Below, in pieces: positions 16,442 to 62,136 of a stretch of 64,000 nt of DNA; the stretch's first letter is position 1, and the number at the start of each line of letters is the position of its first letter. This DNA is from Chitinophaga pinensis (lineage in GTDB: Bacteria; Bacteroidota; Bacteroidia; NS11-12g; UBA9320): contig CAMDSC010000012.1 of the NCBI GenBank assembly GCA_945907065.1, positions 577-64,576 of the forward strand, written 5' to 3'. Position numbers and translations under genes: made by a program. The notes under the pieces were generated by a model, which saw only the letters and a program-made list of their open reading frames with translations, made no database searches and was not told where the DNA came from.

Positions 16442-16448
16442 CTCTTAT

Positions 16449-17441: not shown

Positions 17442-17466
17442 ATTTATTTTTTAGTTTGTTTAATTA

Positions 17467-18069: not shown

Positions 18070-18115
18070 TTCTTATTATTCTTTATTGAAATTTTAAATC
18101 TAAAATCTAAAATTA

Positions 18116-18505: not shown

Positions 18506-18526
18506 TTAATTTTTTTTTGCTATTTA

Positions 18527-18904: not shown

Positions 18905-18907
18905 TAC

Positions 18908-19024: not shown

Positions 19025-19028
19025 TTTA

Positions 19029-19247
19029 TTATTTGTATCTAAAGCTGATTCTTCCTCTTGTTAAATCATATGGTGACATTTCAACCTGAACCTTGTCACC
19101 GGGCAGAATTCGAATGTAGTGCATCCTCATTTTACCACTGATTGTTGCTATAATTTTATGTCCGTTCTTCAATTCTACTCTAAACATTGCATTAGACAGG
19201 GCTTCAATAATCATACCATCCTGTTTAATCGAATCTTGTTTAGACAT
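19029..19247 (-). CDS. infA: translation initiation factor IF-1
   Basis: S1-like fold, 72 aa, [20 protein letters not shown] motif. Confidence 0.95.
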
Positions 19248-19302
19248 GTCTTTTTTTTACGGGCTGCAAATATAGTAATTTAAATTTTATTTTAATCAAA
19301 TA

Positions 19303-40094: not shown

Positions 40095-43000
40095 TTATCT
40101 TAACACTGTAAGAATCATATTTTTTACAAATAATCTTGGATATCCACCTGTTGTTTTTCTATAGCTAATGGTCATTGGATAAACACCATCTGGAACAATT
40201 GTATCTCCTGATTTTCCATTCCATCCTTTATTTGGATCCCCCTTATAAATTATTTCACCCCAACGATTGTAAACCACAAGTTCGACCCATTCAAGTACTT
40301 GCCCCATAGGTTTCCATACATCATTTATATTATCGCCATTAGGTGAAAAAACACTCGGAAAATGCAATTGACATCCTAATTCATCTATGGTAATATTTAC
40401 AGTAGCTGTATCTGCACCGCATCTATTTTCAGCTATTACCCCATATAATCCCGGAGTTTTAATTTTTCGGGTTGGTAAATTATAACCATCAAGCCAAGTA
40501 AATGTGGTATTATCCGCATAAAAACTAAAATCGTAACTAAGGTTAGGACTTTCACAGAAAACAGAATCTGTAAATCCAAAATCAACTACTGGAGGTATTG
40601 AAAAATAAACCCATATTGAATCGCCTTTTGTACAATTACCATTGGATGCCTTAACCCAATACAAAGTCTTTGGTTGGTTAGGCGCACTTATTGAAGGAGT
40701 GCTTGCTCCGGTATTCCAAGTATATGATAAAGCAGCTGCAGACGATGCATCTAAAGTGGGTGAAACCCCATTACATACATCAATATCTGCACCCAAATTA
40801 ACAATTGGAGTGGCTTGATAAATAATTACTACTGTGTCTTTTTTGAAACAAGTTCCATCCGAAATTATTCCTACAAACGAACCACCCGGATTATTTACTG
40901 TATATTTAGCAGTTGTGGCCAACTGAGCTCCAATAAGGGTTTCCCATTCATAAACGGTGGCATTGGTAGCTGTAATATCCAAAGACCATGTAGCATTATC
41001 ACACAATTGCATATCAGCACCCAATGAAGGAATAAATAATTCAGGACGGTAGGTTACTTTAATACTATCACGACTCTTACAAATACCATCATCTCCTTCT
41101 ACCCAATGAATACCTCCAGCAGGTGTTGCGTTTTTGCGAATGCCGGGGGCAGTAGCATTATCCCACCACTTATAGGACTTAAACGCATATTTAGCCACAT
41201 TCAAATCAATGGTTTGATTTACACATAAGATAGTATCTCGACCCAAATTTATTTTTACAGGACTTTGGAATGTTACATTTATTGTATCCGAAGTTTTACA
41301 AACTTTCTTTGGTAAATCACGAAGGTCAACATAATATTTACCGGTTGTAGTAATTGGATAACTATAATTAACCGTGCTACCCATCCAAGTATATTCCACA
41401 TTATTAAGGGTTGAAGATATGGCATTAAATGTAATACCATTGCAAAGTGTAGTATCATTTCCTAGCGTAAACGCCGGAATACTGTATGTCTTTATATCGA
41501 TGGTATCACTCACTTCACAGGTACCGTTGGACACAGTAACCCATTGCTTTCCTGCGGTAGTGGCCTTATAAGTACTAAGCGTAGAATTATCTTTCCATTT
41601 CCAAGTTTTGGTGCCTGCAAGGGCTGCATTTACTAAATAAAAGCCACCTGCACAAAAGGAAGTATCTTTACCTAAACTGAAAGATGCTTTGGATTGGAAC
41701 GTTACATTTACCGTATCGCGAGTACTATAGCACATGGTATCTTTTATCCTTGCCCAATAGAGTCCGGTAGCTTTCACTTTTAATATTGAATCGGTGGTTA
41801 AACCTTTCCATAAATAGGATTTTGAAGTGGTAGTTTTTGCACTCAACGTAACACTGTCACCTAAGCAAAGTAATGTATCCTTTCCAATATTTAAAGTAGG
41901 TATTGCCCTTGTTGCTACGACTACAGTATCATAAGTGTAACATCCAGGTTTATTTTCTGCTCGGACCCATATAGTACCCGATTTTTTGGCATAAGCCGTA
42001 GCCGTGGTATCACCCAAACTCCAAAGGTATTTTTCACCTTTAGAAGCAGTTAACATCACACTATCTCCTGCACAAAACAAAGTATCATTTCCCAATTTAA
42101 ATTTAGGATATTGAATTACATCTACATAAAAGGAATCAGTGCCAGTGCAGCCTCCTACCTTTGCAGCTAACCAATGCCATCCTTTTTTATTGGCAATATA
42201 GGCCGGCACTGTAGAATTGTCATTCCACAGATAGGTGGCATTTGTAATATTCACAACTTTTACGGCTTCTCCCCCTTGGCATATTACAGTATCATTTCCT
42301 AAATCTACTTTTGGGTTAGGAAAAATAGTCAACAGCTTTCGTGCTGTATCTGCATAGCAATCTGGGCTAGCTGTTTTTCTATAAAATTGAACAAAAACAC
42401 TGTAGGTTTTAGCACTTGAAAAGGTATGATACACCACAAAACCTTTTGCTTTATTTTTGACTCCCGTGCTTGGATCTCCAAAATTCCAAACTGCAGAATC
42501 GACTCCGGCTGAGTCAGTAGCAAATAATTTGGTTGACGCCTTTTCACATAAATTGGCTGCATTGCTACCAAAATCAAATTCAGATTTATTAAAAAACGAA
42601 TTTATAAATGTAGGAATGCCCCATTGAGCATATCTGCCTGACCCAAGATCAACGGAGTTCAAAACAAAACTGCACGCCGTTCCTGTACAATTTGGCTTTT
42701 CAATACAAGATAGATATTGAGATCCAGAACCTAAGCGTCCCCTTGTAAGGTAAATTTTACCATCTAAAGCAAGCTGCATTCCCCCACCTGAATTAGTGGT
42801 AAAAGAATTTACAACTTTTATACAACTTGCGCCAATTGCATTAGCATTACCTGCTAACATATCCAATTGCCATAACCCATCGCCACCATCGCTTCCTCCA
42901 ACAATATATGAGGGCAAATAAAAACTAATATAAAGATAACGTGCATTCGGTGAAAGCTCCATTCCATACAAGCTACTGATATTACCAACTCCTGATTTGA

Positions 43001-43826
43001 TATTTGTTTTATCTATAACCTGAGGATTGGATAACTTACCAGTCAAATTATCGAAATCATATATTTCTATCCTACCAGAATTTCCATAATATTGATTACC
43101 CCCGTTTTGTTGGCCGGCAATTAGAGCTATTAACTTGGTACCATCCGGGGTAAACTTCATATACCCTTTTCCATACCCCCTAGCTCCTCCTCCTGTGCAA
43201 GCCCAAGTAGGACCTACTGCTGAAATAACAGGGGAACCAAGTCCGGTTGCATTCAACTTATAAGCATAAAATTTATTATCATCTCCAGTGTGGGATAGCA
43301 CCCAAGTATCCACCTTATTGGCATGCTTGATAGCGCATACCTTTTCGGCAGCTAAATTATTGGTAGTGGCTTTGCTAAGTAAAGGCACATTTTTAGTCAC
43401 CACTTGGCCCATTCCACCATTCAAAGAAGTATCTACAATTGAATATTGAAAACCATCGTTTCCCCATTCAGCGTCAGCTGTAAAAATCCAATACCTATTT
43501 GATCGCACCGGTTGCTGAACAATAATAGCACTTTGAGTGGAATTAACATCACCCTTTAAGCCTGTGCCATTCGACATACCGCCATGTGCCTTGGTCCACA
43601 CATTAACACCATTGGTATAAAAAAGCAACCTGCCTTTAGAGTCAGATATTGATGCTACACCATCTAGGGAGTTCATCACACCATTGGATTGTGCCACAGG
43701 TGCATTCGCTGTTCCATTAAAAGCAACACCTGCTTTATTTCCAAAATACCACCATGTGGCTTCCTTTTGGGCAAATGAATTAAGAGTTAAAATTGAAAAA
43801 AGTAGGAGTAAATAAGACCTTTTCAT
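40095..43826 (-). CDS. giant secreted adhesin-like protein with T9SS type-B (gliding-motility-associated / CHU_C) C-terminal domain
   Basis: signal peptide; N-terminal beta-propeller-like region; PKD motif (WNFGDPSTG); ~12 Ig-like repeats each with LGNDT..C.G; C-terminus FSPNGDNINDVW...VYNRWGEIIY matches type-B CTD. Confidence 0.75.
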   Translation of the reverse strand: MKRSYLLLLFSILTLNSFAQKEATWWYFGNKAGVAFNGTANAPVAQSNGVMNSLDGVASISDSKGRLLFYTNGVNVWTKAHGGMSNGTGLKGDVNSTQSAIIVQQPVRSNRYWIFTADAEWGNDGFQYSIVDTSLNGGMGQVVTKNVPLLSKATTNNLAAEKVCAIKHANKVDTWVLSHTGDDNKFYAYKLNATGLGSPVISAVGPTWACTGGGARGYGKGYMKFTPDGTKLIALIAGQQNGGNQYYGNSGRIEIYDFDNLTGKLSNPQVIDKTNIKSGVGNISSLYGMELSPNARYLYISFYLPSYIVGGSDGGDGLWQLDMLAGNANAIGASCIKVVNSFTTNSGGGMQLALDGKIYLTRGRLGSGSQYLSCIEKPNCTGTACSFVLNSVDLGSGRYAQWGIPTFINSFFNKSEFDFGSNAANLCEKASTKLFATDSAGVDSAVWNFGDPSTGVKNKAKGFVVYHTFSSAKTYSVFVQFYRKTASPDCYADTARKLLTIFPNPKVDLGNDTVICQGGEAVKVVNITNATYLWNDNSTVPAYIANKKGWHWLAAKVGGCTGTDSFYVDVIQYPKFKLGNDTLFCAGDSVMLTASKGEKYLWSLGDTTATAYAKKSGTIWVRAENKPGCYTYDTVVVATRAIPTLNIGKDTLLCLGDSVTLSAKTTTSKSYLWKGLTTDSILKVKATGLYWARIKDTMCYSTRDTVNVTFQSKASFSLGKDTSFCAGGFYLVNAALAGTKTWKWKDNSTLSTYKATTAGKQWVTVSNGTCEVSDTIDIKTYSIPAFTLGNDTTLCNGITFNAISSTLNNVEYTWMGSTVNYSYPITTTGKYYVDLRDLPKKVCKTSDTINVTFQSPVKINLGRDTILCVNQTIDLNVAKYAFKSYKWWDNATAPGIRKNATPAGGIHWVEGDDGICKSRDSIKVTYRPELFIPSLGADMQLCDNATWSLDITATNATVYEWETLIGAQLATTAKYTVNNPGGSFVGIISDGTCFKKDTVVIIYQATPIVNLGADIDVCNGVSPTLDASSAAALSYTWNTGASTPSISAPNQPKTLYWVKASNGNCTKGDSIWVYFSIPPVVDFGFTDSVFCESPNLSYDFSFYADNTTFTWLDGYNLPTRKIKTPGLYGVIAENRCGADTATVNITIDELGCQLHFPSVFSPNGDNINDVWKPMGQVLEWVELVVYNRWGEIIYKGDPNKGWNGKSGDTIVPDGVYPMTISYRKTTGGYPRLFVKNMILTVLR

Positions 43827-43874: not shown

Positions 43875-45641
43875 TTAATCTATTCCTATAAGAAACGGCA
43901 CCCGTGCTTGTATTCCCGAGATTTTTGATAAGGATTGCAGTGTTTTGTGCAAAGTATAAAATTCTCCAAATTCTGCTTTCAAAGCTGCCTTGGTTTGCTC
44001 ATCCCCTGAAAACATTGTGAGTATTTCTTCATATTGGCTCTTTGGCTGAGGATATTCTACAATACGGTAGTCTTTAAGTTTGGCTTTCCATTTGGCTATG
44101 GCAACGGCTTTATCCATTCCGCCAAGCACATCTACCAAGTTTATTTCTTTACCTTGCTCGCCCGTCCACACTCTGCCTTGCCCAATAGAATCAACCATGT
44201 TCTTAGGCATATTGCGCCCTTTGGATACCCGTGTCAAAAATTTGTCATAAATATTTTCAACTAAATGCTGAATCACCTGATACTCAGCCGGAGTCAATGC
44301 TCTATCGATTCGGCCAAAATCTGAAAATTCACCAGTTTTTACATAATCATAGTTAATTCCAAGCTTGTCGTTCAGCAATTTTTGCATGTTGGGCAACAAC
44401 CCAAAAACACCAATACTTCCTGTTAAAGTATAAGGATGAGCCACAATGGTATCAGCAGGAGCAGCAATATAATACCCCCCAGATGCAGCCACTTCAGCCA
44501 TAGATACTATCAATGGTTTTTGGGCTTTTAATAATTCCAACTCACGCCAAATTACATCACTGGCTTGAGCACTTCCTCCCGGTGAATTGATACGAAGCAC
44601 TACTGCTTTTACTCTTTCATCTTCCCGCAGTTTGCGTATCATTTCCGAAAATTTTTCGCTACCTATTTGGTCTTTTTCGCCTTTGCCCATCACTATTTCA
44701 CCATCGGCATATACTACAGCTATTCTATCCTTGCCGCTTCCTTTTCGGTTTTTTAAAGTCTTTTTATATTTATCAAGAGTTATAAAACTAATATCTTTAG
44801 ATTTTTGATTTTTAATTCCAAGCCTATTTTGTATTTCCTGCAATACTTCATCCTTATAAAGTAGCTTATCAATCAATCCAAATTTCACAGCTTCTTCAGG
44901 AGTTTTGGCCAACCATTTATTAGCAATTTCATTTACTCGCGTTGGTGTTAAATTGCGACTAACTGCAATTTTATTTTCCAAGTTATTCATTATGGAATGT
45001 AAATATTCATCTATTTGCTTGCGGTTTTCTGGACTTAGTTTATCTAAAATAAATGGCTCAACAGCGCCTTTAAATTTACCATGACGAATCACTTGCATTT
45101 CTACTCCAAGTTTATCTAGAGCATTTTTAAAGAAAGTAACATTGGCCGAAAGACCATTGAACATCACTTCACCTTCTGGATTTAAAAATACCTTATCAGC
45201 TACAGAAGCAAGGTAGTATGTATTTTCATAGTAATAATCACCGTAGGCATATACAAATTTTCCTGATTTTTTAAAATCAAGAATGGCTTCTCTAATTTCT
45301 TCTATTTTGGCAAATCCGGCTCCTATAAAGTTTAGGTCTAAAAAAATACCTTTAATATTCGGGTCGGTTTTAGCATTTTGAATGGAAGCAACAGTTTCAT
45401 TTAATCCTACTGCTTTGCCAACATTGGGCGACATACCACCAAAAAGATTGAACGGTTTTTCTACATCCTGATCATCAATAGTATAGTTAAAACTGAGTTT
45501 CAAAACTGAATTTTTTTCAACTGTAACCTCATCATCCTTCGAAAAACTTGAAGCAACACCTATCATTACTAAAATGAAAAGGAAAAAAATAATAATGTAG
45601 GCAGTAATGGCTGCTAAAACGTATTTAAAAAATTGTCTCAT
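43875..45641 (-). CDS. sppA: signal peptide peptidase SppA, 67K type (protease IV)
   Basis: N-terminal TM, two ClpP/crotonase-like S49 domains (SMAEVAASGGYYIA with catalytic Ser; GLIDKL Lys region), 588 aa. Confidence 0.85.
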   Translation of the reverse strand: MRQFFKYVLAAITAYIIIFFLFILVMIGVASSFSKDDEVTVEKNSVLKLSFNYTIDDQDVEKPFNLFGGMSPNVGKAVGLNETVASIQNAKTDPNIKGIFLDLNFIGAGFAKIEEIREAILDFKKSGKFVYAYGDYYYENTYYLASVADKVFLNPEGEVMFNGLSANVTFFKNALDKLGVEMQVIRHGKFKGAVEPFILDKLSPENRKQIDEYLHSIMNNLENKIAVSRNLTPTRVNEIANKWLAKTPEEAVKFGLIDKLLYKDEVLQEIQNRLGIKNQKSKDISFITLDKYKKTLKNRKGSGKDRIAVVYADGEIVMGKGEKDQIGSEKFSEMIRKLREDERVKAVVLRINSPGGSAQASDVIWRELELLKAQKPLIVSMAEVAASGGYYIAAPADTIVAHPYTLTGSIGVFGLLPNMQKLLNDKLGINYDYVKTGEFSDFGRIDRALTPAEYQVIQHLVENIYDKFLTRVSKGRNMPKNMVDSIGQGRVWTGEQGKEINLVDVLGGMDKAVAIAKWKAKLKDYRIVEYPQPKSQYEEILTMFSGDEQTKAALKAEFGEFYTLHKTLQSLSKISGIQARVPFLIGID

Positions 45642-45904: not shown

Positions 45905-46411
45905 ATGGCACTAAACGCTTATTTAAAACTCAAAGGACAAAAACAGGGCGACATTAAAGGCTCGGTTACTCAAAAAGGTAGAGAAAACAAAATCATGGTA
46001 ATTGCAGTTAGTCATGAGGTGGTTTCACCAAGAGATATGGCTTCAGGATTACCTTCAGGCAAACGACAACACAAACCGTTTGTAATTACAAAAGAATTGG
46101 ATAAATCCAGCCCATTGCTTTATAAAGCGCTATGCACTAACGAAAATATTACCGAATGGGAATTGCAGTTTTGGACTACACAAATGACAGGAGCCATTGG
46201 TGGTGCAGGGATAGAGAGACAGCATTACACTGTAAAACTTACTAATGCAAAAATTTGTGATATAAAGTTTAGCATGCTAAATAATAAAAATCCTGATTTG
46301 ATGAGGTATGCCGAATATGAAGAGATAGCTTTTACTTATCAAAAAATAAGCTGGACAATTTTGGATGGTGGAATTACTGCTCAAGATGACTGGGAAGCAC
46401 CGATTGTTTAA
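45905..46411 (+). CDS. hcp: Hcp-family protein (type VI secretion tube protein TssD-like), orphan
   Basis: MALNAYLKLKGQKQGDIKGS...(Hcp N-terminal M-A-x-x-x-F/Y-L-K-I/L-x-G-x-KGE pattern), GKRQHKPFVITKELDKSSPLLYKALCTNE (Hcp core motif SF.K.(V)DK.SP.L..A...G), 168 aa; no other T6SS genes in window. Confidence 0.75.
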   Translation: MALNAYLKLKGQKQGDIKGSVTQKGRENKIMVIAVSHEVVSPRDMASGLPSGKRQHKPFVITKELDKSSPLLYKALCTNENITEWELQFWTTQMTGAIGGAGIERQHYTVKLTNAKICDIKFSMLNNKNPDLMRYAEYEEIAFTYQKISWTILDGGITAQDDWEAPIV

Positions 46412-49600: not shown

Positions 49601-49647
49601 AACTTTTTAAAAACGCTTTGCTTTCGGGAATAAAAGCAACGGTATTT

Positions 49648-51567
49648 ATGAACAGATATATAATTATCTCTTTTTTGTTCTCCCTTGGTTTGCCTGCCGC
49701 AGCGCAAAAGGATTCACTATGGAAAAAAAATCTAAAGGAAATTACCATAACTACTGACCGGGTTGAATTATACACCTTAGGAAACAGAATTGATAAACCC
49801 GACAGCCTTTTACAACGTATTTTTAAATCATCACCCATAGGTTCATTACTTGATGCCTCAAGTGGTTTGGTTATTCGTAGTTACGGGCCGGGAATATTGG
49901 CCACTTCATCCCTGAGGGGAGGAAATGCCCAACAAACTGCAATGTCCTGGAACGGATTATCAATCAACAGTCCTGTAAACGGATTGAGTGATTTAAATCT
50001 TATACCTTCCTTTTTATTTGACGGGATTTCTGTTTTACCGGGATTGGCCGGTAGCTTGCAAGGAAGTGGCGCTATTGGCGGTGGAATAAATTTAAACAAT
50101 TCTGCCTTAAAAAAAGAAGGATTTTCAGCCGAGCTAATGCAAACCGCTGGAAGTTTTGGAACTTATACAGGAGGGTTTAAATTTAATTATACAAAAAAGA
50201 AATGGAGCCATTCTGTAAAAGGTTTTTATTCAAAAACCAACAATAATTATTCATTTATAAACCGTGCCGAAGCTGGAAATCCAAAAGAAAATTTGACAAA
50301 TGCCGAAGGCAAAAATTATTCGGTTTTGCATCAAACTGCCTATCAATCCGCAAAGGCCGGAATTTTTAAAATTAACTATTGGGGAACCTTCGCCAATCGC
50401 CAAATACCTCCTACCCTATTGATGGAAAATACGACAGCCCGACAACTCGACAATATTCAAAAAACAATGGTACAATGGGACAAATCGTTTAAAAAAGTAA
50501 GTTTAAAATTTCATTCTCTATTTCAAAATGATTATTTAAAATACAGTGAAAAAGAGTTAGACATCAATTCCATCTCCAAGTCTATATTTATTACCAATGA
50601 TGCTGAATTGCGATTTAAAAGCTTTAAAAATTCTACCTCAAGCATTGGTGCTGTTCATTCGTTTACCAAAGCTAATGTAGCTAATGTTTTAAATACAGGA
50701 ACTACCACCTTAAATGAATCTGAAAGAAATCAAGTGGCATTTTGGGCAAGTCATTTTCATCAGATTGTTAAACTTAGAACCAGTATTTCAGCCAGCGTGA
50801 GGCAAGAATTGGTTGATACAAAATTTTTACCTTTAATTCCTGCACTTGGGTTTAAAACCCACCTTCATAAAACCCTTGATATTTATGGTCAAACAAGCAA
50901 GGTTTACAGAATTCCAACCTTAAACGACCTGAATTGGATTCCGGGAGGAAACCCTGAATTAAAACCAGAATCTGGATGGGCCAACGAACTTAGTGCCGAG
51001 TTAAATAAAAAAAATAAACAGCTTTATTTCACAACTTCTGTCACCGGATATAGCCGCCTTATTACCAATTGGATTCAGTGGCAACCGGTATCTTCGCAAA
51101 TTTGGAGTCCCATAAATATTGGTAAAGTAAACAGCCGTGGGCTGGAACTAAGAAGTACTCTAAAGATTAGTATTACCAATAAAATTTATAGCAAAACAGG
51201 TCTCAATTTTGATTATACCAAATCCGAAAATGTGGATGCCACTAACCCAAACTACAAAAAGCAGTTGCTCTATATCCCCTATTTTAAATCCTCAGGCTTT
51301 ATTGCCTTTGGGATAAAAAATACAGTTTTGCTCTTACAAGGAGTTTGGGTTGGTAAACGGTATACCGGTTCTGACAATTTAGATTCAATACCGCACTACG
51401 GCTTAATAAATTTAGCATTGAATCATAACTTAAACTTAAAAAAAACGAATGGCAATGCATTTTTAAGAGTTAATAATATTTTAAATAAAAGCTATGAAGC
51501 CATTGTTTGGCGGCCAATGCCGAGTATTAATTTTGAATTTGGAATAAATATATGTTTTAACAACTGA
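49648..51567 (+). CDS. btuB: TonB-dependent receptor, BtuB-like (cobalamin-riboswitch controlled)
   Basis: signal peptide MNRYIIISFLFSLGLPAAAQ (start set at ATG 49648 rather than TTG 49618), plug motif LRGGNAQQTAMSWNGLSIN, ~640 aa barrel; riboswitch context. Confidence 0.75.
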   Translation: MNRYIIISFLFSLGLPAAAQKDSLWKKNLKEITITTDRVELYTLGNRIDKPDSLLQRIFKSSPIGSLLDASSGLVIRSYGPGILATSSLRGGNAQQTAMSWNGLSINSPVNGLSDLNLIPSFLFDGISVLPGLAGSLQGSGAIGGGINLNNSALKKEGFSAELMQTAGSFGTYTGGFKFNYTKKKWSHSVKGFYSKTNNNYSFINRAEAGNPKENLTNAEGKNYSVLHQTAYQSAKAGIFKINYWGTFANRQIPPTLLMENTTARQLDNIQKTMVQWDKSFKKVSLKFHSLFQNDYLKYSEKELDINSISKSIFITNDAELRFKSFKNSTSSIGAVHSFTKANVANVLNTGTTTLNESERNQVAFWASHFHQIVKLRTSISASVRQELVDTKFLPLIPALGFKTHLHKTLDIYGQTSKVYRIPTLNDLNWIPGGNPELKPESGWANELSAELNKKNKQLYFTTSVTGYSRLITNWIQWQPVSSQIWSPINIGKVNSRGLELRSTLKISITNKIYSKTGLNFDYTKSENVDATNPNYKKQLLYIPYFKSSGFIAFGIKNTVLLLQGVWVGKRYTGSDNLDSIPHYGLINLALNHNLNLKKTNGNAFLRVNNILNKSYEAIVWRPMPSINFEFGINICFNN

Positions 51568-51589
51568 TTAAACTGATTGATTTGATATA

Positions 51590-52582
51590 ATGATTTTAGA
51601 TAAAAAAATATATTTAGTATTTACCCTTTCATTTCTCTTTTGGGGAATGAAAGGATTTTCACAATATGCTCCTGCAGCAGGAAAGTTAGGAAGTTCGGCA
51701 CTTTTTAAAGATTCATCCATTTTTGTAAATTGGGCCAAGCAATGCACTATTTACAGAGGGTGGAAAAACATTGCTCAAAAAGATTCAGGTTATGCCACCA
51801 TTGGCGATAGCACTTCAGCAACTGGCAAAGCAGGAGAAAACGGAATAGTGAGCTTGGGAGATAGCGGTATTGCAATTTGTCAATTTTACAAACCTTTAAT
51901 AAATGGTGATGGATGGGATTTTGCTGTATTTGAAAACACTTTTGACGACCGCTATTTAGAACTTGCCTTTGTGGAGGTGAGTTCTGACGGGTGGAGATAC
52001 TTTAAGTTTCCATGCCATTCTTTAACCGACACGTTAAATCAAACTGGAGCCTTCGGCTATACCGAACCTGAAAATATTAATAACCTTGCTGGGAAATATA
52101 GGGCGGGATATGGAACACCATTTGACATCGGCGACATTCCCGATTACAAAGACTTAAATAAAAACAATATACGGTTTGTAAAAATTTTAGATATTGTGGG
52201 AAGTTTAAACTCAAAATTTGCAAGCTTAGATACAGCCATGCGAAAAATAAATGACCCATGGCCTACCCCATTTACATCCAGTGGCTTTGATTTGGATGCC
52301 ATTGGAGTTATTCATGAACAAGCCACCTCGGAGATTATTTCAATTAATTCGAATCAATTTATTATAGGCCCTAATCCTATTAAAGAATCTCAAAAATTAA
52401 GAATTGATAATTCTGAAAATCTAATTTCAACTATAAAAATTTTTGATACCGTTGGTAAATTATATAAAGAAATAAGTATTTCATCCCCACTAATTGAGAC
52501 CACTGATTTGCCATCCGGATTATTTTTTATTCATTTTTCAGGAACATCTATTACCAGCATTTATAAAGGTTTAAAATTATGA
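51590..52582 (+). CDS. secreted protein with T9SS type-A C-terminal sorting domain, in B12-uptake operon (possible DUF4465/BtuH-like B12-capture domain)
   Basis: signal peptide; C-terminal ~75 aa (FIIGPNPIKESQKLRID...IFDTVGKLYKEI...LPSGLFFIHF) matches Por_Secre_tail pattern; 1-nt-overlap coupling to next gene. Confidence 0.5.
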   Translation: MILDKKIYLVFTLSFLFWGMKGFSQYAPAAGKLGSSALFKDSSIFVNWAKQCTIYRGWKNIAQKDSGYATIGDSTSATGKAGENGIVSLGDSGIAICQFYKPLINGDGWDFAVFENTFDDRYLELAFVEVSSDGWRYFKFPCHSLTDTLNQTGAFGYTEPENINNLAGKYRAGYGTPFDIGDIPDYKDLNKNNIRFVKILDIVGSLNSKFASLDTAMRKINDPWPTPFTSSGFDLDAIGVIHEQATSEIISINSNQFIIGPNPIKESQKLRIDNSENLISTIKIFDTVGKLYKEISISSPLIETTDLPSGLFFIHFSGTSITSIYKGLKL

Positions 52583-53640
52583 GAAAAAAAATAATCTCTA
52601 CAAAATTTTATATTCTCATTGCCCTCAGTGCCTCCGTGTTAATTTTATATAGTTGCAAAGATGAGCCACCCAAAACACATCCAACCCAATTAGGTCAAGG
52701 GAAAGGTTTGTTTGTTTCTAACGAAGGTACTTTTGGAATGGGCAACGCTTCGTTAACGTATATTAATCTTGAAAACGATTCACTAAACACAGATGTAGAC
52801 CTATTTAAAACCAGTAACAACCGTTCTTTAGGTGATGTTTTTCAAAGCATGAGTTTGATAAATAAATATGCTTGGTTGGTGGTAAATAATTCAGGAAAAA
52901 TTGAAGTAATAAATCCGGAAACCTCCAAATCCGTTGCTACTATCAAAAATCTTAAATCCCCACGCTATGCCTTGGAAGTGCAACCCGGAAAAGTGTATGT
53001 TTCTGACCTTTACTCCAATTCTATAAGCATAGTTGATGCTAATTCCTTTACCAAAACCAGAGAAATTAAATGCAAAGGCTGGACAGAAGAAATGATTTTA
53101 TTTCAAAACAAAGTATGGGTAACCAATCATAACAGCGATTATCTTTACATTATTAATCCATCCACCGACATTATTACTGACAGCATTGCTCTGGCTTATG
53201 GTGGCTCAAGTTTAGTATCTGATAAGGATGGAAAAATTTGGGTTTTATGTTCGGGCGATTTGATAAAAAAACGTACCGGAGGACTTTTTTGCATTAATCC
53301 TACTACCCTAAAAATTGAAAAACAATGGCAATTTGCTAAAGATGATTACAACCCTGTAAAGCTGAAACAAAACCCAGCTAATGATAGTTTGTATTTTATT
53401 AATCAAGGAATTTTTGGGTTTCCAAAAACGGCAGCTAATCTCCCTGTCAATCCTATAATATCGCAACCTTCAGGCACATCATTTTATGGACTAACCATTC
53501 AATTATCTACAGGAAATCTTTTTGTATCGGATGCTATAGATTTTGTAAGCCGTGGTAAAGTTTCCGTCTATTCACCTAAAGGTATTTTCATTAAGTCTTA
53601 TAAAACCGGAGTCGTTCCGGGGGAGTTTTTGTGGTGGTAA
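52579..53640 (+). CDS. surface lipoprotein, YncE-like beta-propeller (BtuG-like)
   Basis: lipoprotein signal (ALSASVLILYSC), repeated YV(S/T)N...N.(V/I)..(V/I)D beta-propeller blades; Bacteroidota B12 loci encode a BtuG beta-propeller lipoprotein next to btuB. Confidence 0.55.
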   Translation: MRKKIISTKFYILIALSASVLILYSCKDEPPKTHPTQLGQGKGLFVSNEGTFGMGNASLTYINLENDSLNTDVDLFKTSNNRSLGDVFQSMSLINKYAWLVVNNSGKIEVINPETSKSVATIKNLKSPRYALEVQPGKVYVSDLYSNSISIVDANSFTKTREIKCKGWTEEMILFQNKVWVTNHNSDYLYIINPSTDIITDSIALAYGGSSLVSDKDGKIWVLCSGDLIKKRTGGLFCINPTTLKIEKQWQFAKDDYNPVKLKQNPANDSLYFINQGIFGFPKTAANLPVNPIISQPSGTSFYGLTIQLSTGNLFVSDAIDFVSRGKVSVYSPKGIFIKSYKTGVVPGEFLWW

Positions 53641-53650
53641 ATAAATAAAA

Positions 53651-53690
53651 AACGGTCTCAAGAAATCTTGAGACCGTTTTAATAAATTGA
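53651..53690. terminator. bidirectional rho-independent terminator (btuG-like + / giant protein -)
   Basis: aaaaaa cggtctcaag aaat cttgagaccg tttt. Confidence 0.65.
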
Positions 53691-53703: not shown

Positions 53704-56700
53704 CTATTTTATCTTAAAATCGAAGCAGCCTATAATTTCACATTCCTTACAATTTGCATCTCTAAATGTAAACTTCACACAAATCTTTCCTTTTAGTTCG
53801 CAACAGTCAATAGCTGGTTTTGGGGGTAATATAAAGGTCATTCCAATATTGGTAATATTTGGAGCATTTAAATTACTTCCGTTATTCCAAATTACTTCTC
53901 TTGGATTTTGATAAACTCCAGTGCTGCTTCCATTAAATGAAGGAACCGTTGTGCCACCATACATTGTAATTTTAGGAGGAGCCGCATTTATATTTAAAGC
54001 TGAAGCCACACTTGCCCACGTAAAAGGAAGATTAACACATTGCATACATTCCTTTTTGTAATTATCATCAATGGTATAGCTTACCACATTAGCTCTCACC
54101 TCGGTAATATTAACTGTAGCCGGTATAGATATCGAGAAATTGTTACTAACTAAAGTTGAATTTATCCCTGCAGTATAGGTTGGATTTTTAGGGTTTACTT
54201 TAATTTCATAAGGGCAGCAAGAACTACTGTCGCAATTCGTTTTAAATTTGATAACACAACTGTCACAGATCTTATCACCGCACCATCCATAAAGTGTTAA
54301 AATATAAACACCAGGCAAACTTGGAACAAAGTTAAGTTGCAAATTACCGGTAGTTATTCCTCCACTTGGTGGTTGTAGTTTATATTTCACAACCCCGTTG
54401 CATGTGGAATCGGCACATTTATACTTGCCATTTATTAAATAGGTTTGATTGCATGCTACATCATATGTTTTTTTGCATTCTAGTTTTTTAGAATTCCCCA
54501 CTCCAATATTTGCTTTCATATCAGGATTGTCGGTTTTATTCATGGTTATTTCACCCCAACTGCTGCCTTTACAACTGCAATTACAGTTTTTTATAAATAA
54601 ATCATACTTGCCTGATTTTGCAGCACAGCTATCGGTAAGATAAGTTACCTGAATTGTGATTTGGTGTTGACCTAAAGACAAACCTGTAAGGCTTAAAAAA
54701 GGGCCTGTTGAATGGTAATTTCCATCTACAAACCATCTAATATTATACACTCCGTTGTATGTTTGTCCGGGGCCTAAAGGTAGAGGAGGAATTATTTTAG
54801 CGGTATCGCATAAAGTATCGCAACCAATAGGAAACAAAGCCAAATAGGGACGTTTTTTAATAGTAACCATATTACTTGTACCAAAACATCCACTTATTGG
54901 ATCAACAACTGTTACATAATAGTTTCCTGCCTGTGCCGTGGTCATAGTTTGCCCGCTAGCACCATTACTCCATTGATAAATATAATTAGGATTGGTAGGA
55001 GTAGCTGTTGCGGTATAGGTATGATTTATTCCTTCACATAAATAACCAGTTGGGGCTATAGTTACTGATGGACTTAAATATAAATAAACACAGAAAGTAT
55101 CTTTAGCTACACAGCCCGTTGTAATATCTGTTACTGTTAAAATAAACTGATAAGTTCCCAATTGTGTAACTGCTGCACTCGCATAAAATTGAAGATTATC
55201 CGGACTAAAAGTTACACTTCCTGGTCCTGTGCAAGTCCAGTTATAGGTGTAATTTGGATTATTTCCACCGGTATTTTGCACACTTATAGTCCATGGCGAA
55301 CTTCCACTCGCACATTGAACGGTTTGCCCCTGAATATCAGCCAAAGGTTTTGGTAAATAAATAACCATTACAGTATCTGATTTTACAGGACAACCATTGT
55401 TATTACTAATGGCTGTTACTGTATAATTCCCCGATGCATTAAAATTGCATAACTGATAGGTTGAATTAGTTGCTCCGCTAATTGCAGCCCCATTTTGATA
55501 CCATTGAAAACCTGTAAAACTAGCAGCAGGATTGGTATTTAAAGTAAGTGGTGGTAGGCAATCAGGGCAAATTTTTACTATTGGTGAAGGAGTAATAGTT
55601 AATGCCGTTGGAATTAATACAGTAATAGGCTTTGAAGTAGTAAAAATACATCCATACCGATCCTTTATAGTTAATGAAATGGTAGGATTAATTGGTGTTC
55701 CATTATAGGCATGAGTTATAGGATTGGTAACACCAGTTGTGGCGTCACCAAAATTCCATGCATATGAAATCACTCCTGCGGTATAGCTGCTGTTAAAAAC
55801 TGTTTGAGCATCTTTACACACATTGGGTCCTCCAAGTATAGAAAATGTAGTTGTTGGAAAATTAAATGTAAACGATTTGGTAAGAGTACAACCATTTTTA
55901 GAGATGGTAAGTGTAATTGTAGGATTACAACCAAATGGAACGGTTAATATTGGGTTAGGTATGTTTGTAGCACTTAAAGAACCACAGGTAGTTGACCAAG
56001 TAATCGAATATCCTGCATAAGCAGCCAAAAATCTGGAAGCATCCTGCAATTGAATACTCCAAGCATTTACACCACAACTTATCACACTTGTAAATGAATC
56101 TACCATTGGCACAGTAACAATAACTGTATCACAATGTTTAGTTCCATTGCTGCAGGTCATTACTGCATAAACTTGATAAGCTCCGGCATCAGCATAAAGA
56201 TGATTACCGGTTGGGCCACTAAAGCCATCTCCGTAATACCACGCTGTTGAAACAGGAGTACATCCGGCAGGAATATTTGTGGTTAAAGAAACTGGATTTG
56301 GGCAATTGCTTGTGCTTATTACTAAATCAGGAATACAACCCGGTGCAGGCACACAAGGACTTACAACTATCACATTAGATACATCAGTGCATCCATTGCT
56401 GCAACTCACTGTTACAAAATAACTACCTGGTAAATTTGTGGTCATTGTTGGGCCGGTAGCTCCATTGCTCCATAAAAATGTAGCTCCTGGGCAATTTGCA
56501 GGTATGGGGGCTTGCATAGTTACCGAACCACCATTACATATATTTCCAATTGCAGAAATGGTAGCTATTACTGGGGTTATACCCGTTACAATAATTTGAT
56601 TTGTTGCAATACAAGGGCCTGGATAAGTGGCTTGTAACACATAGGTTCCATTTTGGGTAACCGTAAATGGGCTTCCTGAACCAACAGGACTTCCATTTAA

Positions 56701-58740
56701 AAACCAATTGTAGGTTCCTCCGCTTGGTGCGGCAGTTAAAGTTGCTGAACAAGCACCATTAACTTTTGTAATAGTAACGGTTGCTGCTGTAGCTGTTAAA
56801 TTTATAGAACTGCTTCCACCACAACTTGTAATTGTAAGAGTAGCATTGCTGTTAATTGTAAAAGTGGCTGAATTAGTTCCTTGACCTCCTGTAAGCACAG
56901 CTCCAGGTGTAGCACTCCACACATATCCTCCTGGAGGAATGGCTCCTGCCACAGTTGCTGTAATAGTTCCACCGCTGCAAGTGCTAGCACCCGGTGAAAG
57001 TGTAATCGCAGGTGGTGCAGGTACTTTTGTTATAGAAAGCGTTTTTGTTCCTGTACAACCTGCCACAGTTTGTGAAGCCTGCAAAGTCCAAGGGCCAGCA
57101 CCTGTAAACAAGACAGATGCTAATGAATTATTGGCTCCATAAGGCGCTATATTTCCTGTACCTGCAGTAAAACTCCAAGCAAAATTTCCTCCTGCAACAT
57201 TACTACTTACAGAATAGGCATATAATTGATTTGGGCAAATAATAATATTACCAACTATTGGATTTAAAATAGGAGTTGGATTTACTATTACATTTAGCAA
57301 ATCGGAAGGTGTGCAATAGTTTGCAGCATTAATTGGAACTGCATAAATGTTATAGCTTCCAGCTACATTCCAAGTAAGAGAAATACTTGAAACACTTGAA
57401 AATGTTCCTGCAGGAATACCTGGAGGCGTATAACCTGAAGTTGGGGTAATATTCCAGTTAGCATTGCCACCACCATTCACAAAATAGGATGATGTAGAAT
57501 TTGTGCAAACTGGTGAAAGTCCTGAAATTTGAAATTTAGGTTTTATATAAATTTTTATTGTGCTAGAGCCACTGCATCCGCTATATGGATTTTTATAATT
57601 ACAAACTAAATAATAAGGACCTCCTGGTGAAGAATTCCAAGTAACATTTATTATATTATGATTGCTATCTACCCCGGCAATTGTCCCTCCTCCGCTTAAT
57701 GTCCATTTATAAAATGTACCCGGCAAGGCTGGCAAAGAATAAGAAGTTGTAGAACTTGGACATACCGGTGTAGGTCCTTGAATTGGCAAATTCGGATAAA
57801 GTACAGGAACATTAATAGTAGATGAGTTACCACAAGTATTTGGGCAAGTAGCATTTAGGGTTACAGTTGTGGGATAAGTACTTGGCATATTCCAAACCAC
57901 CTTTACACATGTTGTACCTTGTCCACTGACTATTGTTCCGCCATTCACTACCCAATTTAATCCTGTGCATCCAACTGTACTGGTACAATATTTTATTGTA
58001 TCTCCCGGGCATAGCATCTTTCGGCAATCATCTGTATGAATATCAATTCCTTTTTTAGTGCCTACAGTAATTTTTACCATAGCTGTATCCTTACAACCAC
58101 ATTCTACAAGTTCGCCTTTGCTATTTAGAATAAGATTAAAAACTGTTAAAATAACTATTTTTACACCACTTGTAGCATAAATATGTGGAGGTGGATTTTG
58201 AACATTATCAAAAGTACCATCCCCAAAATCCCAATAATATCCGGATGCGCCAATGGATGTTGCTCCGCTAAAATTCACAGGAGTTAAGGCACAAACAGGG
58301 TTAGGATTAAAAGTGATTCCGGCGGTTGGGCCATCTACCAAACATACAGTCATTCGTATTGTATCTCTACATTTTCCATCAGCACTTGAAACAATTACTT
58401 GAATAAAGCCTTGAGAATTGTTTCCCCAAGTTATTATTCCAGGATTAGCTGGAGTAACCGCTATAGAACCACCAACAACTGTCCAGCTATATGTAAATCC
58501 TGTAAGGTTGGGAACTACTAAATAACTTTGTTGTTGATTTTTACAAGCTATCAATATTCTACCGGGACTGCCAGCTCCTCCATCAGGATTGGCATGAATT
58601 TGTTTGCATGCGTAATCATCACATGGACGAATAGCGTTTGATACCAATTCAAATTTTGGACAACAGCCAGCTGGCTGATTCTGAGCATTTGTATTTACAA
58701 AAGACAACAGTAATATCAGGATAAATAATAAGTTCTTCAT
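53704..58740 (-). CDS. giant (1678 aa) secreted Cys-rich multi-repeat protein with PKD domains and shared C-terminal Cys-rich module; no T9SS CTD
   Basis: signal peptide MKNLLFILILLLSFVNTNAQ; PKD signatures YWDFGDGT and WNFGDATTG; >100 Cys; many Ig-like repeats; C-terminal ~300 aa Cys-rich region ending ...PPKPAIDCCELKGKICVKFTFRDANCKECEIIGCFDFKIK. Confidence 0.6.
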   Translation of the reverse strand: MKNLLFILILLLSFVNTNAQNQPAGCCPKFELVSNAIRPCDDYACKQIHANPDGGAGSPGRILIACKNQQQSYLVVPNLTGFTYSWTVVGGSIAVTPANPGIITWGNNSQGFIQVIVSSADGKCRDTIRMTVCLVDGPTAGITFNPNPVCALTPVNFSGATSIGASGYYWDFGDGTFDNVQNPPPHIYATSGVKIVILTVFNLILNSKGELVECGCKDTAMVKITVGTKKGIDIHTDDCRKMLCPGDTIKYCTSTVGCTGLNWVVNGGTIVSGQGTTCVKVVWNMPSTYPTTVTLNATCPNTCGNSSTINVPVLYPNLPIQGPTPVCPSSTTSYSLPALPGTFYKWTLSGGGTIAGVDSNHNIINVTWNSSPGGPYYLVCNYKNPYSGCSGSSTIKIYIKPKFQISGLSPVCTNSTSSYFVNGGGNANWNITPTSGYTPPGIPAGTFSSVSSISLTWNVAGSYNIYAVPINAANYCTPSDLLNVIVNPTPILNPIVGNIIICPNQLYAYSVSSNVAGGNFAWSFTAGTGNIAPYGANNSLASVLFTGAGPWTLQASQTVAGCTGTKTLSITKVPAPPAITLSPGASTCSGGTITATVAGAIPPGGYVWSATPGAVLTGGQGTNSATFTINSNATLTITSCGGSSSINLTATAATVTITKVNGACSATLTAAPSGGTYNWFLNGSPVGSGSPFTVTQNGTYVLQATYPGPCIATNQIIVTGITPVIATISAIGNICNGGSVTMQAPIPANCPGATFLWSNGATGPTMTTNLPGSYFVTVSCSNGCTDVSNVIVVSPCVPAPGCIPDLVISTSNCPNPVSLTTNIPAGCTPVSTAWYYGDGFSGPTGNHLYADAGAYQVYAVMTCSNGTKHCDTVIVTVPMVDSFTSVISCGVNAWSIQLQDASRFLAAYAGYSITWSTTCGSLSATNIPNPILTVPFGCNPTITLTISKNGCTLTKSFTFNFPTTTFSILGGPNVCKDAQTVFNSSYTAGVISYAWNFGDATTGVTNPITHAYNGTPINPTISLTIKDRYGCIFTTSKPITVLIPTALTITPSPIVKICPDCLPPLTLNTNPAASFTGFQWYQNGAAISGATNSTYQLCNFNASGNYTVTAISNNNGCPVKSDTVMVIYLPKPLADIQGQTVQCASGSSPWTISVQNTGGNNPNYTYNWTCTGPGSVTFSPDNLQFYASAAVTQLGTYQFILTVTDITTGCVAKDTFCVYLYLSPSVTIAPTGYLCEGINHTYTATATPTNPNYIYQWSNGASGQTMTTAQAGNYYVTVVDPISGCFGTSNMVTIKKRPYLALFPIGCDTLCDTAKIIPPLPLGPGQTYNGVYNIRWFVDGNYHSTGPFLSLTGLSLGQHQITIQVTYLTDSCAAKSGKYDLFIKNCNCSCKGSSWGEITMNKTDNPDMKANIGVGNSKKLECKKTYDVACNQTYLINGKYKCADSTCNGVVKYKLQPPSGGITTGNLQLNFVPSLPGVYILTLYGWCGDKICDSCVIKFKTNCDSSSCCPYEIKVNPKNPTYTAGINSTLVSNNFSISIPATVNITEVRANVVSYTIDDNYKKECMQCVNLPFTWASVASALNINAAPPKITMYGGTTVPSFNGSSTGVYQNPREVIWNNGSNLNAPNITNIGMTFILPPKPAIDCCELKGKICVKFTFRDANCKECEIIGCFDFKIK

Positions 58741-58745: not shown

Positions 58746-60362
58746 CTATTTTATGTTTTTATTTAATGGATCATGATCTATCTGGTCATTACAACCCTCT
58801 TTTTTCTTTTCATAACAAACTAATTTGTTACAAGTAGTACAATCGGTAAATTCAATTTTGTATCGAATACACCACCTGAATACTGCACTGCAACACGGAG
58901 TTAGTTGAGGCGTGGTAATATTAATATTTAATGGTGGTGGGTTGTTGCCAGTATTCCAAGCAAGGCTGTTAGTGCCATTTGTAAAATGACCATATGTAGC
59001 TGCATCCTTATTGCAAGGTATACAAAAATTATTTTCAGGAGTCATTTCAAAATAAACCAGTTCGGCCTTAATATTTTTAATGGTTTTAGGCGGGGCTGTG
59101 GTAATTGAAACTGATTGAGAATAAGAAAGTATATTGTTCGTATAATTTATTTGAGCTGGAGCATTTGCTGTTAATGTAAAATGTTTATCATCACAATCTG
59201 CACATCGGCAGGGTTTAACCGTGTCACACAAATAATCTTCGGCATTTTTGTTCGGGTCACCTTGTTTTTGTATTCTTGTTTTTATACAAATATAACTTAG
59301 TGAGCTACTGGCAGTGATGGTTCCGCTTACGAGGAGTATACCACCCGATGCCGCGATGGATACTACTGGGTTCGGCACTGTGCTGGCAATAGTGGCACCT
59401 CCCGGAGTACTTGTGGTTATGCTGATATTTGTAAATTCAGCCACAGTGTTATTCAGATTCGTAATTATATACGAATAGGTGTAAAGACCTGGAGTAGATG
59501 TACATTTTACTTTTAATGAATCTAGTTGAATGATATATTGAGTTTGCATACTAAATGCAAAAGGTTGAGCAAACCCAAGTCCATCCACTAATTTCCGCCC
59601 CTGATCATCTAAAGGAGTAACTGTCCAAACATAATTTTTACCCATTTCAGGCATTGCAAATTCTACCGGCCATTGGGTTTGAAGTACTCCTTTCAAATCT
59701 TTTTCAACAATGGGTTGGTTGCTTCGTAAGGCTGTCATACTATTTTGCCCTTCCAATACCTCCCATACCTGCAGGCGATATGTAACTATTGTTGAAGGTG
59801 CTGGAGTAACCGGTGTCCACCTAAAAACTATTCCTTTCATCCCCGATTCAGAAATAGCTTCTTTGTCTTTAGGATTAACAAGCGTTGGAGCCTGATAAGC
59901 CATAATGCTAAAAGTTTTACAAACTGTTCCTGAAGTTCCAACCGGGGCACCAGTCACAGGATCTATAAGGGCGACACAAATTCTATAATTATCATCCGGT
60001 ATTCGGCCTGTGGTTATTGCAGATTTCTCTAAATTACCTTTATAATTTACCACATTGGATGGAATTATATCCTCTGGATTATAAGTTGAACTACCAGGAG
60101 GAACCGTTAATACTGGCATTTTTGCCGCATCAGTATTTGCTACCAATGTTCCTTTACCATCAAATAGTTCTGTTTTTATTTTCACTTGAATATCCTTTGT
60201 ACTCGAGTTAATTATTAAAAGTTTAACTGTTTCAGTTCGTTGCTGCCAATCGGATATATAAGGCGATGGTTTTGGACTCATCAGCAACTGAATGTTTTGA
60301 GCCTTGAGACCACCCGCTGACAAGAAGATTAGAACTACAAGTAATTTAAATTTTTTATACAT
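58746..60362 (-). CDS. secreted protein (538 aa) with C-terminal Cys-rich module homologous to that of the downstream giant protein
   Basis: signal peptide MYKKFKLLVVLIFLSAGGLKAQ; C-terminus ...FCIPCNKD...SLAWNTGNNPPPLNI...PCCSAVFRWCIRYKIEFTDCTTCNKLVCY; 5-nt gap to next gene. Confidence 0.5.
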   Translation of the reverse strand: MYKKFKLLVVLIFLSAGGLKAQNIQLLMSPKPSPYISDWQQRTETVKLLIINSSTKDIQVKIKTELFDGKGTLVANTDAAKMPVLTVPPGSSTYNPEDIIPSNVVNYKGNLEKSAITTGRIPDDNYRICVALIDPVTGAPVGTSGTVCKTFSIMAYQAPTLVNPKDKEAISESGMKGIVFRWTPVTPAPSTIVTYRLQVWEVLEGQNSMTALRSNQPIVEKDLKGVLQTQWPVEFAMPEMGKNYVWTVTPLDDQGRKLVDGLGFAQPFAFSMQTQYIIQLDSLKVKCTSTPGLYTYSYIITNLNNTVAEFTNISITTSTPGGATIASTVPNPVVSIAASGGILLVSGTITASSSLSYICIKTRIQKQGDPNKNAEDYLCDTVKPCRCADCDDKHFTLTANAPAQINYTNNILSYSQSVSITTAPPKTIKNIKAELVYFEMTPENNFCIPCNKDAATYGHFTNGTNSLAWNTGNNPPPLNINITTPQLTPCCSAVFRWCIRYKIEFTDCTTCNKLVCYEKKKEGCNDQIDHDPLNKNIK

Positions 60363-60366: not shown

Positions 60367-62136
60367 TTATAATTTATAGGTTATGGAAGTTCTTAAAAGA
60401 TTTTCACGATAGGATATTCCAGGACGGCTATCGCCAAATTCAAAAAGATTAATTGAGCCGTTTAATGAAAACGATACTTTCTTTTTCACAGTGAGTTTCA
60501 CTCCAATTAAGGTCATTATTTGTGAGCCGAATGAAGTGGCACCTAAAGTATTCTCAGCATAAGTAAGACCTAAAGTTGTGCTTAGTTTTTTCTTAAATAA
60601 TTTATATCCAACACCCACATTTACGGCTTTGGTCATTAATTTTCCATAAGAAGTATTATTATCAAAATAGCTAATTAAAGTAGTTGCTGAAAAAGGCGAT
60701 TTTAACATAGAAAGCATATACGAAAATGCTCCATTGCTGGCATCGTTATTATTTACAGCACCCGTTATTGTATTAAAATCATTGAAAACATTTTGAGCAT
60801 ACATAAGTGTAAAATTATGCATACTTGATTTGGTTATAAAATTATACGATGGACTGACACTCCAAGATTCCGTCACCATTTCAACTCTAAATGTGTCATT
60901 CAATACTGAGTTTCTAAACCCAAAGTTGGAATAAGAGCCTGCCAGAGACAAATTATCTGTTAACTGTAAATTGAGGTTGGCGGAACCTATAGTTTGGGTT
61001 GTGGTTGTTGCTCGGATACCTGAAAGATTATTCACTCGTCGTCCAATAGAACCAGAAAGCTGAACCTTGTTTTTAAATAACATAAATCGCGGGTCAATGG
61101 TTGCCTCCAATCGGTCGGTTTGTAAAAAAGGATAACCCAATGGTACAAAACCATCGCCGTAGTAACGACCTGTTAATTTTAATCCGAAGTTTTTTCCATC
61201 TCTTCCTATAGATAATACCGATGCATAATCCAATCGGCTGGATTCTTTGGGTATAAAAACAGTTTTTGGTGGCGATAGTGAAAAAGATGGCAACTCATTG
61301 GAACGCATATCTCTTGTAAAAGCAGAACCAGCAACCTCTCCTTTTATATAAGTTTTTTTACTTAATTTAATCCTAAAATCAATTGAACTTAAAATACCTG
61401 TTTGGGGCATAACATTTATTGGTTTAGTAACCAAAGATGCTGTGTCATCTTGCATCATACTGGCAATTATGTATAGATGGGAAGAATCTTCATAGCCAAA
61501 TCCAATTTTGGCTGAATGGATTTTTCGAGCATAAATACCTTGGATATTTTTAGTTGTATCCTGCTTTACCGCCATTTGTGATGTACCTGAAAAAACTGAG
61601 AGTCTAAATTTACCCGGAGTTAAATTTAATCCTGCCCCATATACCGCCAAATCGCCAACACTCAATTCAGAATATTGAGGAATTTGAGAACCCAATAAAA
61701 CTTGGCACCATTTATATTTTGGAGCAATACCAATGCGGTTTAACGGATTTTTTACAAGTTCTTTAAAATTCAAGTAGGGAGCATTTGGTATTTTAGGAAC
61801 ACTGGGAAGTATAACCCCAAATTGTCCTGTTGGTAAAGCCATTGATATTGGCATTGAAAAATCTTTAATATTTATTGAAACATTTACAACTAATCTACCC
61901 AAAGCATCAGGCCTACGAGGAGCTACAGCCCCTAATGTATCCGAATTCATGTGATAAAAATCACCATAAACTCCCATATCTCCTGAAATATTTATTGGTT
62001 TATTTTTTTGTTGGCCAAAAGTAAATTGAGAGAATAAAGTAACTAAGTACAGTAAAAAGATTAACCTTTTTGGCAACAATAATATAAGTTGTAGATTAAT
62101 CATAGGGTTACACAAATATAATTTTATTAAATACAT
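60367..62136 (-). CDS. predicted outer-membrane beta-barrel protein, first gene of three-gene operon (family not recognised)
   Basis: N-terminal hydrophobic signal (LIFLLYLVTLFSQFTFGQQ); ~550 aa of alternating hydrophobic/polar short strands with Gly/Asn/Ser-rich turns; no plug, POTRA or OmpA motif; 4-nt gap to next gene. Confidence 0.4.
   Translation of the reverse strand: MYLIKLYLCNPMINLQLILLLPKRLIFLLYLVTLFSQFTFGQQKNKPINISGDMGVYGDFYHMNSDTLGAVAPRRPDALGRLVVNVSINIKDFSMPISMALPTGQFGVILPSVPKIPNAPYLNFKELVKNPLNRIGIAPKYKWCQVLLGSQIPQYSELSVGDLAVYGAGLNLTPGKFRLSVFSGTSQMAVKQDTTKNIQGIYARKIHSAKIGFGYEDSSHLYIIASMMQDDTASLVTKPINVMPQTGILSSIDFRIKLSKKTYIKGEVAGSAFTRDMRSNELPSFSLSPPKTVFIPKESSRLDYASVLSIGRDGKNFGLKLTGRYYGDGFVPLGYPFLQTDRLEATIDPRFMLFKNKVQLSGSIGRRVNNLSGIRATTTTQTIGSANLNLQLTDNLSLAGSYSNFGFRNSVLNDTFRVEMVTESWSVSPSYNFITKSSMHNFTLMYAQNVFNDFNTITGAVNNNDASNGAFSYMLSMLKSPFSATTLISYFDNNTSYGKLMTKAVNVGVGYKLFKKKLSTTLGLTYAENTLGATSFGSQIMTLIGVKLTVKKKVSFSLNGSINLFEFGDSRPGISYRENLLRTSITYKL

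Follow-up and report, generated by a model that had tools for sequence, protein, structure and literature searches.

We analyzed a window of 64,000 nucleotides (nt) from Chitinophaga pinensis (GTDB lineage Bacteroidota; Bacteroidia; NS11-12g; UBA9320), corresponding to positions 577 to 64,576 of contig CAMDSC010000012.1 in assembly GCA_945907065.1. Three minus-strand genes of this window, here called barrel, small, and big, form one operon in this order with intergenic gaps of 4 and 5 nt (Table 1). They encode a predicted outer-membrane β-barrel and two proteins of 538 and 1678 amino acids (aa), which share a cysteine-rich C-terminal module. A divergently oriented purB forms the upstream border of the operon, and its end is marked by a strong terminator-like hairpin behind big. 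Each of the three products starts with a signal peptide of the Sec type whose last residues are ...AQ or ...GQ (...KAQ in small, ...NAQ in big), and no lipobox was found on any of them; the same holds for their homologues.

Table 1 Features of the operon, with positions counted from the first letter of the window (HMM = hidden Markov model)
Feature	Position	Strand	Description
Terminator-like hairpin	53649..53680	-	14-bp stem and T-run, 24 nt past the big stop codon
big gene	53704..58740	-	1678 aa; PKD/Ig-like array, Mid modules, big-type module
Big-type ten-Cys module	53707..54234	-	big residues 1503-1678; A1 HMM E = 2.2e-71
Cys-rich Ig-like Mid modules	54235..54720	-	big residues 1341-1502
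small gene	58746..60362	-	538 aa; signal peptide, smallN, ~100-residue linker domain, small-type module
Small-type ten-Cys module	58791..59216	-	small residues 383-524; A1 HMM E = 1.4e-46
smallN domain	59547..60305	-	small residues 20-272
barrel gene	60367..62103	-	578 aa from Met12 of the 589-aa open reading frame, per public records

A preliminary description of this locus, made from the sequence alone, had assigned the product of the 589-aa open reading frame (ORF) to an outer-membrane barrel. Structure prediction agrees and yields a large β-barrel of ~25 strands (predicted local distance difference test, pLDDT, 88). The protein has no sequence match in Pfam, NCBIfam, or PDB, and it falls into neither the TpsB family (POTRA plus ShlB-type barrel) nor the chaperone-usher family. 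The longest form of its ORF starts 11 codons (62104-62136) upstream of the public start at Met12 (MINLQL...), and the shorter form agrees with the signal peptide.

Likewise, small has no match in Pfam or NCBIfam and no sequence match in PDB. It has 252 homologues, of which 120 were listed; 111 of these conserve the final ~150 residues, which end ≤18 residues from the C-terminus and reach ~67-77% identity among the best-scoring ones. The large protein big is a PKD/Ig-like array (PKD_4 at 1.6e-17, PKD_6, and weak Ig_7 in a Pfam scan), with the "CHU_C-associated" Ig_7 domain at residues 1044-1124 staying below threshold. The best PKD/Ig stretches lie within residues 138-1206; none covers residues 1503-1678 and small has none at all, so that the shared module is not a PKD domain by these profiles. 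Between the array and the module, big carries cysteine-rich Mid modules, which have no counterpart in small, vary in copy number among homologues, and sometimes follow the ten-cysteine module. Neither these Mid modules nor smallN nor the related ~300-aa proteins described below returned anything meaningful in Pfam scans.

A ten-cysteine module shared by small and big

Smith-Waterman alignment of the two window modules gave a score of 78, against 34.4 ± 6.0 for 2000 composition-preserving shuffles (z = 7.3). None of the shuffles reached the observed score, and the similarity is therefore more than a common richness in cysteine and asparagine. BLASTP returned a marginal E = 0.009 for the whole proteins, the kind of value that a compositional coincidence might give, and E = 2e-4 for the C-termini alone. 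An hhalign comparison of the family profiles (111 small-type versus 32 big-type sequences) aligned 129 columns across the whole module, with E = 1.8e-5 and a probability of 78%. When 18 big-type and 17 small-type sequences (35 in total) were aligned jointly, exactly 11 columns proved invariant, ten cysteines and one tryptophan. These are C1503, C1508, C1565, C1568, W1618, C1646, C1647, C1654, C1664, C1667, and C1672 in big, and Cys 385, 390, 447, 450, 490, 491, 498, 508, 511, and 516 with W468 in small. Both window proteins thus follow the register C-x4-C ... C-x2-C ... W ... C-C-x6-C-x9-C-x2-C-x4-C, and across 142 full-length instances from a library of 1.84 billion proteins the same ten cysteines and the tryptophan are the only columns with at least 80% conservation (80-100%). 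Together, the shuffle statistics, the profile-profile match, and the in-register framework in both sequence sets rule out a chance resemblance of Cys/Asn-rich composition, whose probability we consider practically nil. By all these comparisons, the two C-terminal modules are homologous and represent one shared domain.

This result bears out the central claim of the preliminary description, which had aligned the two C-termini by eye and proposed profile comparison as a check; its details fared unevenly. Both proteins match the terminal pattern CC-x6-C-x9-C-x2-C-x4-C exactly, but the proline placed in front of it in both is replaced in big (D-C-C). The proposed pairing of TTAPPK in small with NINAAPPK in big was wrong, because the central CxxC separates the two stretches: TTAPPK precedes it, and NINAAPPK follows it inside an insertion of ~35 residues that the big-type module has relative to the small-type. 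Sharing does not extend over the last ~300 aa of big either, of which only ~176 belong to the module, and nt 54235-54700, formerly included, encode the different Mid modules.

The module exists as two old paralogous types, the small-type on the 538-aa protein and the big-type on the 1678-aa PKD-repeat protein. A search of 1.84 billion representative proteins with the joint-alignment profile recovered both families at E < 1e-37 and yielded 632 clusters at E ≤ 1e-3 (408 at E ≤ 1e-10), a lower bound for the occurrence of the module. For the C-terminus of big itself, 38 homologues were found. The module has no relative in Pfam, NCBIfam, or PDB by sequence, consistent with the earlier impression that it matches no named domain, and we found no description of the domain or of the cassette around it in the literature.

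AlphaFold2, supplied with the joint alignment, confidently modeled an all-β sandwich (pLDDT 81; predicted template modeling score, pTM, 0.77). The module is accordingly predicted to be an Ig/cohesin-like β-sandwich of ~140-180 residues, held by a fixed framework of ten cysteines. Disulfides between these cysteines are conceivable, as is a metal site formed by the two CxxC knuckles that never vary (C1565xxC1568 and C1664xxC1667, the second at the turn of the last β-hairpin of the model). Big-type modules have an odd number of invariant cysteines, 11 in 32 of 33 homologues, the eleventh being C1509. Small-type modules have 12 (with Cys 387 and 524 in addition) and a thirteenth in 60% of the sequences; a further cysteine, Cys 379, lies just upstream of the module. 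Together with the CxxC knuckles, these counts would be compatible with an unpaired cysteine, with a disulfide between domains or between molecules, or with a Cys4 metal site. We considered whether cysteine parity points to an intermolecular disulfide and rejected this argument: the neighboring Mid region of big also has an odd number of cysteines (11), so that a bond between domains is just as possible.

Position of the module and T9SS domains

Neither big nor small matched the C-terminal domains of a type IX secretion system (T9SS), be it type A (PF18962/TIGR04183; no hit in Pfam up to E = 1 or in NCBIfam up to E = 0.01) or type B (CHU_C, PF13585/TIGR04131; no HMM match in Pfam or NCBIfam). 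Two other proteins of the window served as positive controls. The protein encoded at 40095-43826 matches CHU_C (4.3e-12), and that at 51590-52582 matches TIGR04183 with 25.5 bits (cut-off 23), while its 25 bits against PF18962 (Por_Secre_tail) stay just below the cut-off of 27. This genome therefore uses both types of T9SS C-terminal domain, and their absence from big and small was correctly noted in the preliminary description. The ends of big (...GCFDFKIK) and small (...DHDPLNKNIK) also have no hydrophobic segment of the kind expected for LPXTG, PEP-CTERM, or GlyGly-CTERM signals.

The idea that the module might itself be an alternative C-terminal signal implied that it would always be C-terminal, which is not the case. 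Among the 142 representatives, it ends ≤25 residues from the C-terminus in 90, and in 34 it is followed by more than 60 residues. Further Mid modules occur in these tails, as do charged coiled segments. In P0304, P0370, and P0273, the tail includes a genuine T9SS type A C-terminal domain (27.6, 30.2, and 35.6 bits, respectively; Pfam cut-off 27). In the 724-aa protein P0273, the module sits near the N-terminus (residues 62-244), and TSP1 and MopE motifs lie between it and the C-terminal domain. In these three proteins, the module is cargo and not the signal. Two matched stretches were found in 24 of the 142 representatives; in 21 of these there is truly a second copy, located internally, and in three a single copy was reported in halves.

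Elsewhere in the window, three plus-strand genes at 49618-53640, convergent with the operon, encode a BtuB-like TonB-dependent receptor, a 330-aa T9SS type A protein, and a DUF5074/YncE-like β-propeller, which looks like a cobalamin-like locus for surface-assisted uptake. An isolated Hcp gene (45905-46411, plus strand; T6SS_HCP, 2.9e-35) has no type VI secretion genes among its scanned neighbors. The 1243-aa PKD protein with CHU_C (40095-43826, minus strand) adjoins a 588-aa ORF (43875-45641, minus strand), which we considered as a barrel paralogue and rejected, as it encodes an SppA-type S49 signal-peptide peptidase.

Cassette architectures and natural fusions

A scan with one genome per species returned 80 loci, whose ORFs were then searched with HMMs. 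All loci are from uncultured organisms (Chitinophagaceae/Ferruginibacter, other Chitinophagales, Prolixibacteraceae, and a few others), and the relatives recovered for this module-bearing form of the cassette come from metagenomes only. A big protein with the big-type module was present in all 80 loci, the barrel in 70, and a small protein with the small-type module in 67, with contig ends accounting for most missing members. Most cassettes additionally encode a ~300-aa protein consisting of a smallN domain. The expected company of module and barrel was thus seen in 70 of 80 genomes.

The order barrel, small, big is that of the window and its closest relatives (L003 and L011). In 65 of 69 cases, the gene directly behind the barrel gene encodes a smallN-domain protein; three contig ends and one frameshift make up the rest. 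Distant barrel homologues (L092-L094), including one from the cultured Fulvivirga imtechensis AK7, adjoin proteins of 1700-2300 aa that have an N-terminal smallN-like domain (E from 1e-13 to 5e-5) and in which no Cys module was found. The barrel is followed there by this large smallN protein, a ~590-690-aa fn3-containing protein, and another large protein, and these loci represent a broader cassette family without the Cys module. As a cultured carrier of the module-less cassette, F. imtechensis AK7 could serve for genetics.

A LytTR response regulator and a Reg_prop/LytS-type histidine kinase lie directly upstream of the cassette in L001, L002, L085, and in 30 of the 80 loci, which suggests dedicated regulation; this pair is absent from the window. 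In L003, a second, paralogous cassette (14267-20544) is located 4 kb downstream of the first. It comprises a barrel, a 415-aa smallN protein, and a ~889-aa protein that combines smallN, a Mid module, and a big-like module, similar to P0062, and domains are therefore shuffled among the cassette proteins.

The 21 proteins with two true copies are natural fusions of small and big, composed of smallN, a first module, repeats (SdrD_B, PKD), a second module, and sometimes a T9SS domain. The first copy is small-type in 18 and the second big-type in 16 of the 21, and the reversed order never occurs. One fusion (P0315, locus L085) takes the place of small and big in an otherwise standard cassette. Another (P0337, locus L083) has a sub-threshold T9SS-type tail (22.8 bits, cut-off 27), and the protein that comes next still contains a barrel domain (E = 7e-46).

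Pairwise distance matrices over 51 loci formed two sets that vary together, with a correlation of r = 0.93 between the small-type and big-type modules (0.74 and 0.95 within clades) and of r = 0.91 between the barrel and the ~300-aa protein, compared with r = 0.38 between the modules and the barrel.

Candidate roles of the module

Three architectures have to be accommodated. A fibre protein with its own smallN has no Cys module, a separate smallN protein goes along with a module on both proteins, and a fused protein has both module types in the same order. They would be explained most economically if smallN were the element on the barrel side and the modules formed a docking pair. As our preferred reading, which we regard as quite possible, we tentatively propose that the small-type and big-type modules are a heterotypic pair through which the PKD fibre is tied to an adaptor associated with the barrel. 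In this mechanism, small would act as the adaptor: its N-terminal smallN would go with the barrel, its C-terminal module would hold the matching module at the C-terminus of big, and the long PKD fibre would thereby be tethered to a barrel-associated anchor. We infer here the physical pairing of the modules, the contact between smallN and the barrel, and the surface location. An attachment or docking role in general is plausible. Two points qualify this proposal. The fusions and the correlated distances speak for a unit made of the whole small and big proteins more than for the modules by themselves, because flanking domains co-vary too, and the single-module relatives in unrelated architectures show that the domain can also act outside a docking pair.

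Other explanations were weighed against the same observations. According to the preliminary description, the module would be a C-terminal sorting or anchoring signal recognized by the barrel. Both proteins would then be exported across the outer membrane, or plugged into it, independently of T9SS, for which the retention module of LapA is an analogy. This now appears distinctly unlikely: some copies are internal, doubled, near the N-terminus, or upstream of genuine T9SS domains, distant barrel cassettes lack the module altogether, the invariant neighbor of the barrel is smallN, and the distances of module and barrel are weakly correlated. With 140-180 residues and ten fixed cysteines, the module would also be far bigger and stiffer than known sorting signals. 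If it were instead an independent ligand-binding head (lectin-like, metal-binding, or an adhesive tip) directed at the same target in both proteins, one would look for a common pocket. None is evident, as nothing is conserved family-wide beyond the cysteines and the tryptophan, and such a head would leave unexplained the strict pairing of the two types, the fixed order in fusions, and why the module is missing when the large protein bears smallN itself. We regard this role as rather unlikely.

A structural end-cap, cystine-knotted and protecting the repeat array from proteolysis or unfolding without a specific partner, would suit the dominance of the cysteine framework in the conservation pattern, the terminal position in most proteins, and the Cys-rich nature of the neighboring Mid modules. 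It is nevertheless very unlikely in our view, given that two distinct types are kept side by side in many genomes and that conservation within each type reaches well beyond the cysteines, with a median identity to the window modules of 59-61% versus 33% for the PKD array. This comparison is centered on the window, because the window barrel belongs to a divergent sub-family, and we dropped the argument of a twofold higher conservation of the module; mean distances among the 51 loci are similar (0.45-0.50 for the modules, 0.40 for the barrel).

Large barrels of 24-26 strands that hold a protein are known from chaperone-usher pili and the MtrAB porin-cytochrome complex. The window barrel resembles them only as a large β-barrel, as it has no usher or chaperone Pfam signature, plug, or POTRA domain, and heme motifs are missing as well (no CxxC precedes a His). 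For the module itself, the closest functional analogies are docking modules of the cohesin type and the module by which LapA-type adhesins are retained. In contrast to cohesins (PF00963), the module has no Pfam cohesin match, possesses a ten-cysteine frame that cohesins lack, and occurs in the outer-membrane context of Gram-negative Bacteroidota. The partner of a cellulosome cohesin is a dockerin, whereas the proposed partner here is a paralogous copy of the same fold. T9SS type A and B domains are likewise C-terminal Ig-like β-sandwiches on secreted PKD-repeat proteins of Bacteroidota; however, the module is about twice as long, has ten invariant cysteines, gives no HMM match, and in relatives also lies internally and directly upstream of true type A domains. 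LapA of Pseudomonas fluorescens is a type 1-secreted adhesin that is anchored in the outer-membrane pore LapE (bioRxiv 10.1101/198937). The shared concept would be a folded terminal domain that keeps a giant repeat adhesin on an outer-membrane channel. The systems differ in secretion route (type 1 versus Sec) and in the terminus involved and have no homology, and the evidence here favors smallN over the Cys module as the barrel-side element.

A more far-reaching version, which we consider unlikely, is that the ~25-strand barrel, the smallN protein, and the PKD fibre form a self-contained, T9SS-independent display system with the ten-cysteine modules as its dedicated coupling device. The barrel and smallN would then export and/or anchor long Ig-domain fibres, and a shared metal site or an intermolecular disulfide might lock the coupling. 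If true, this would represent a new protein-assembly pathway and a new class of docking domains.

In Bacteroidota, large PKD/Ig-repeat proteins are thought to reach the surface mainly via T9SS or as lipoproteins. The 1678-aa PKD protein described here carries neither signal, in a genome that uses T9SS, and is part of a cassette that is widely conserved and unites three protein families without annotation. What is new is a widely distributed, cysteine-framed domain of docking or adhesin type inside an undescribed conserved outer-membrane cassette. Its ten-cysteine signature makes at least 632 protein clusters searchable, and the definition of the module provides a concrete pairing hypothesis. 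Should the two types prove to be a compact, cystine-stabilized heterodimerizing pair, they might also be of use as a protein-engineering tag. For the biology of these bacteria, the module offers a handle on how fibres are anchored to the outer membrane, in a way that may be undescribed.
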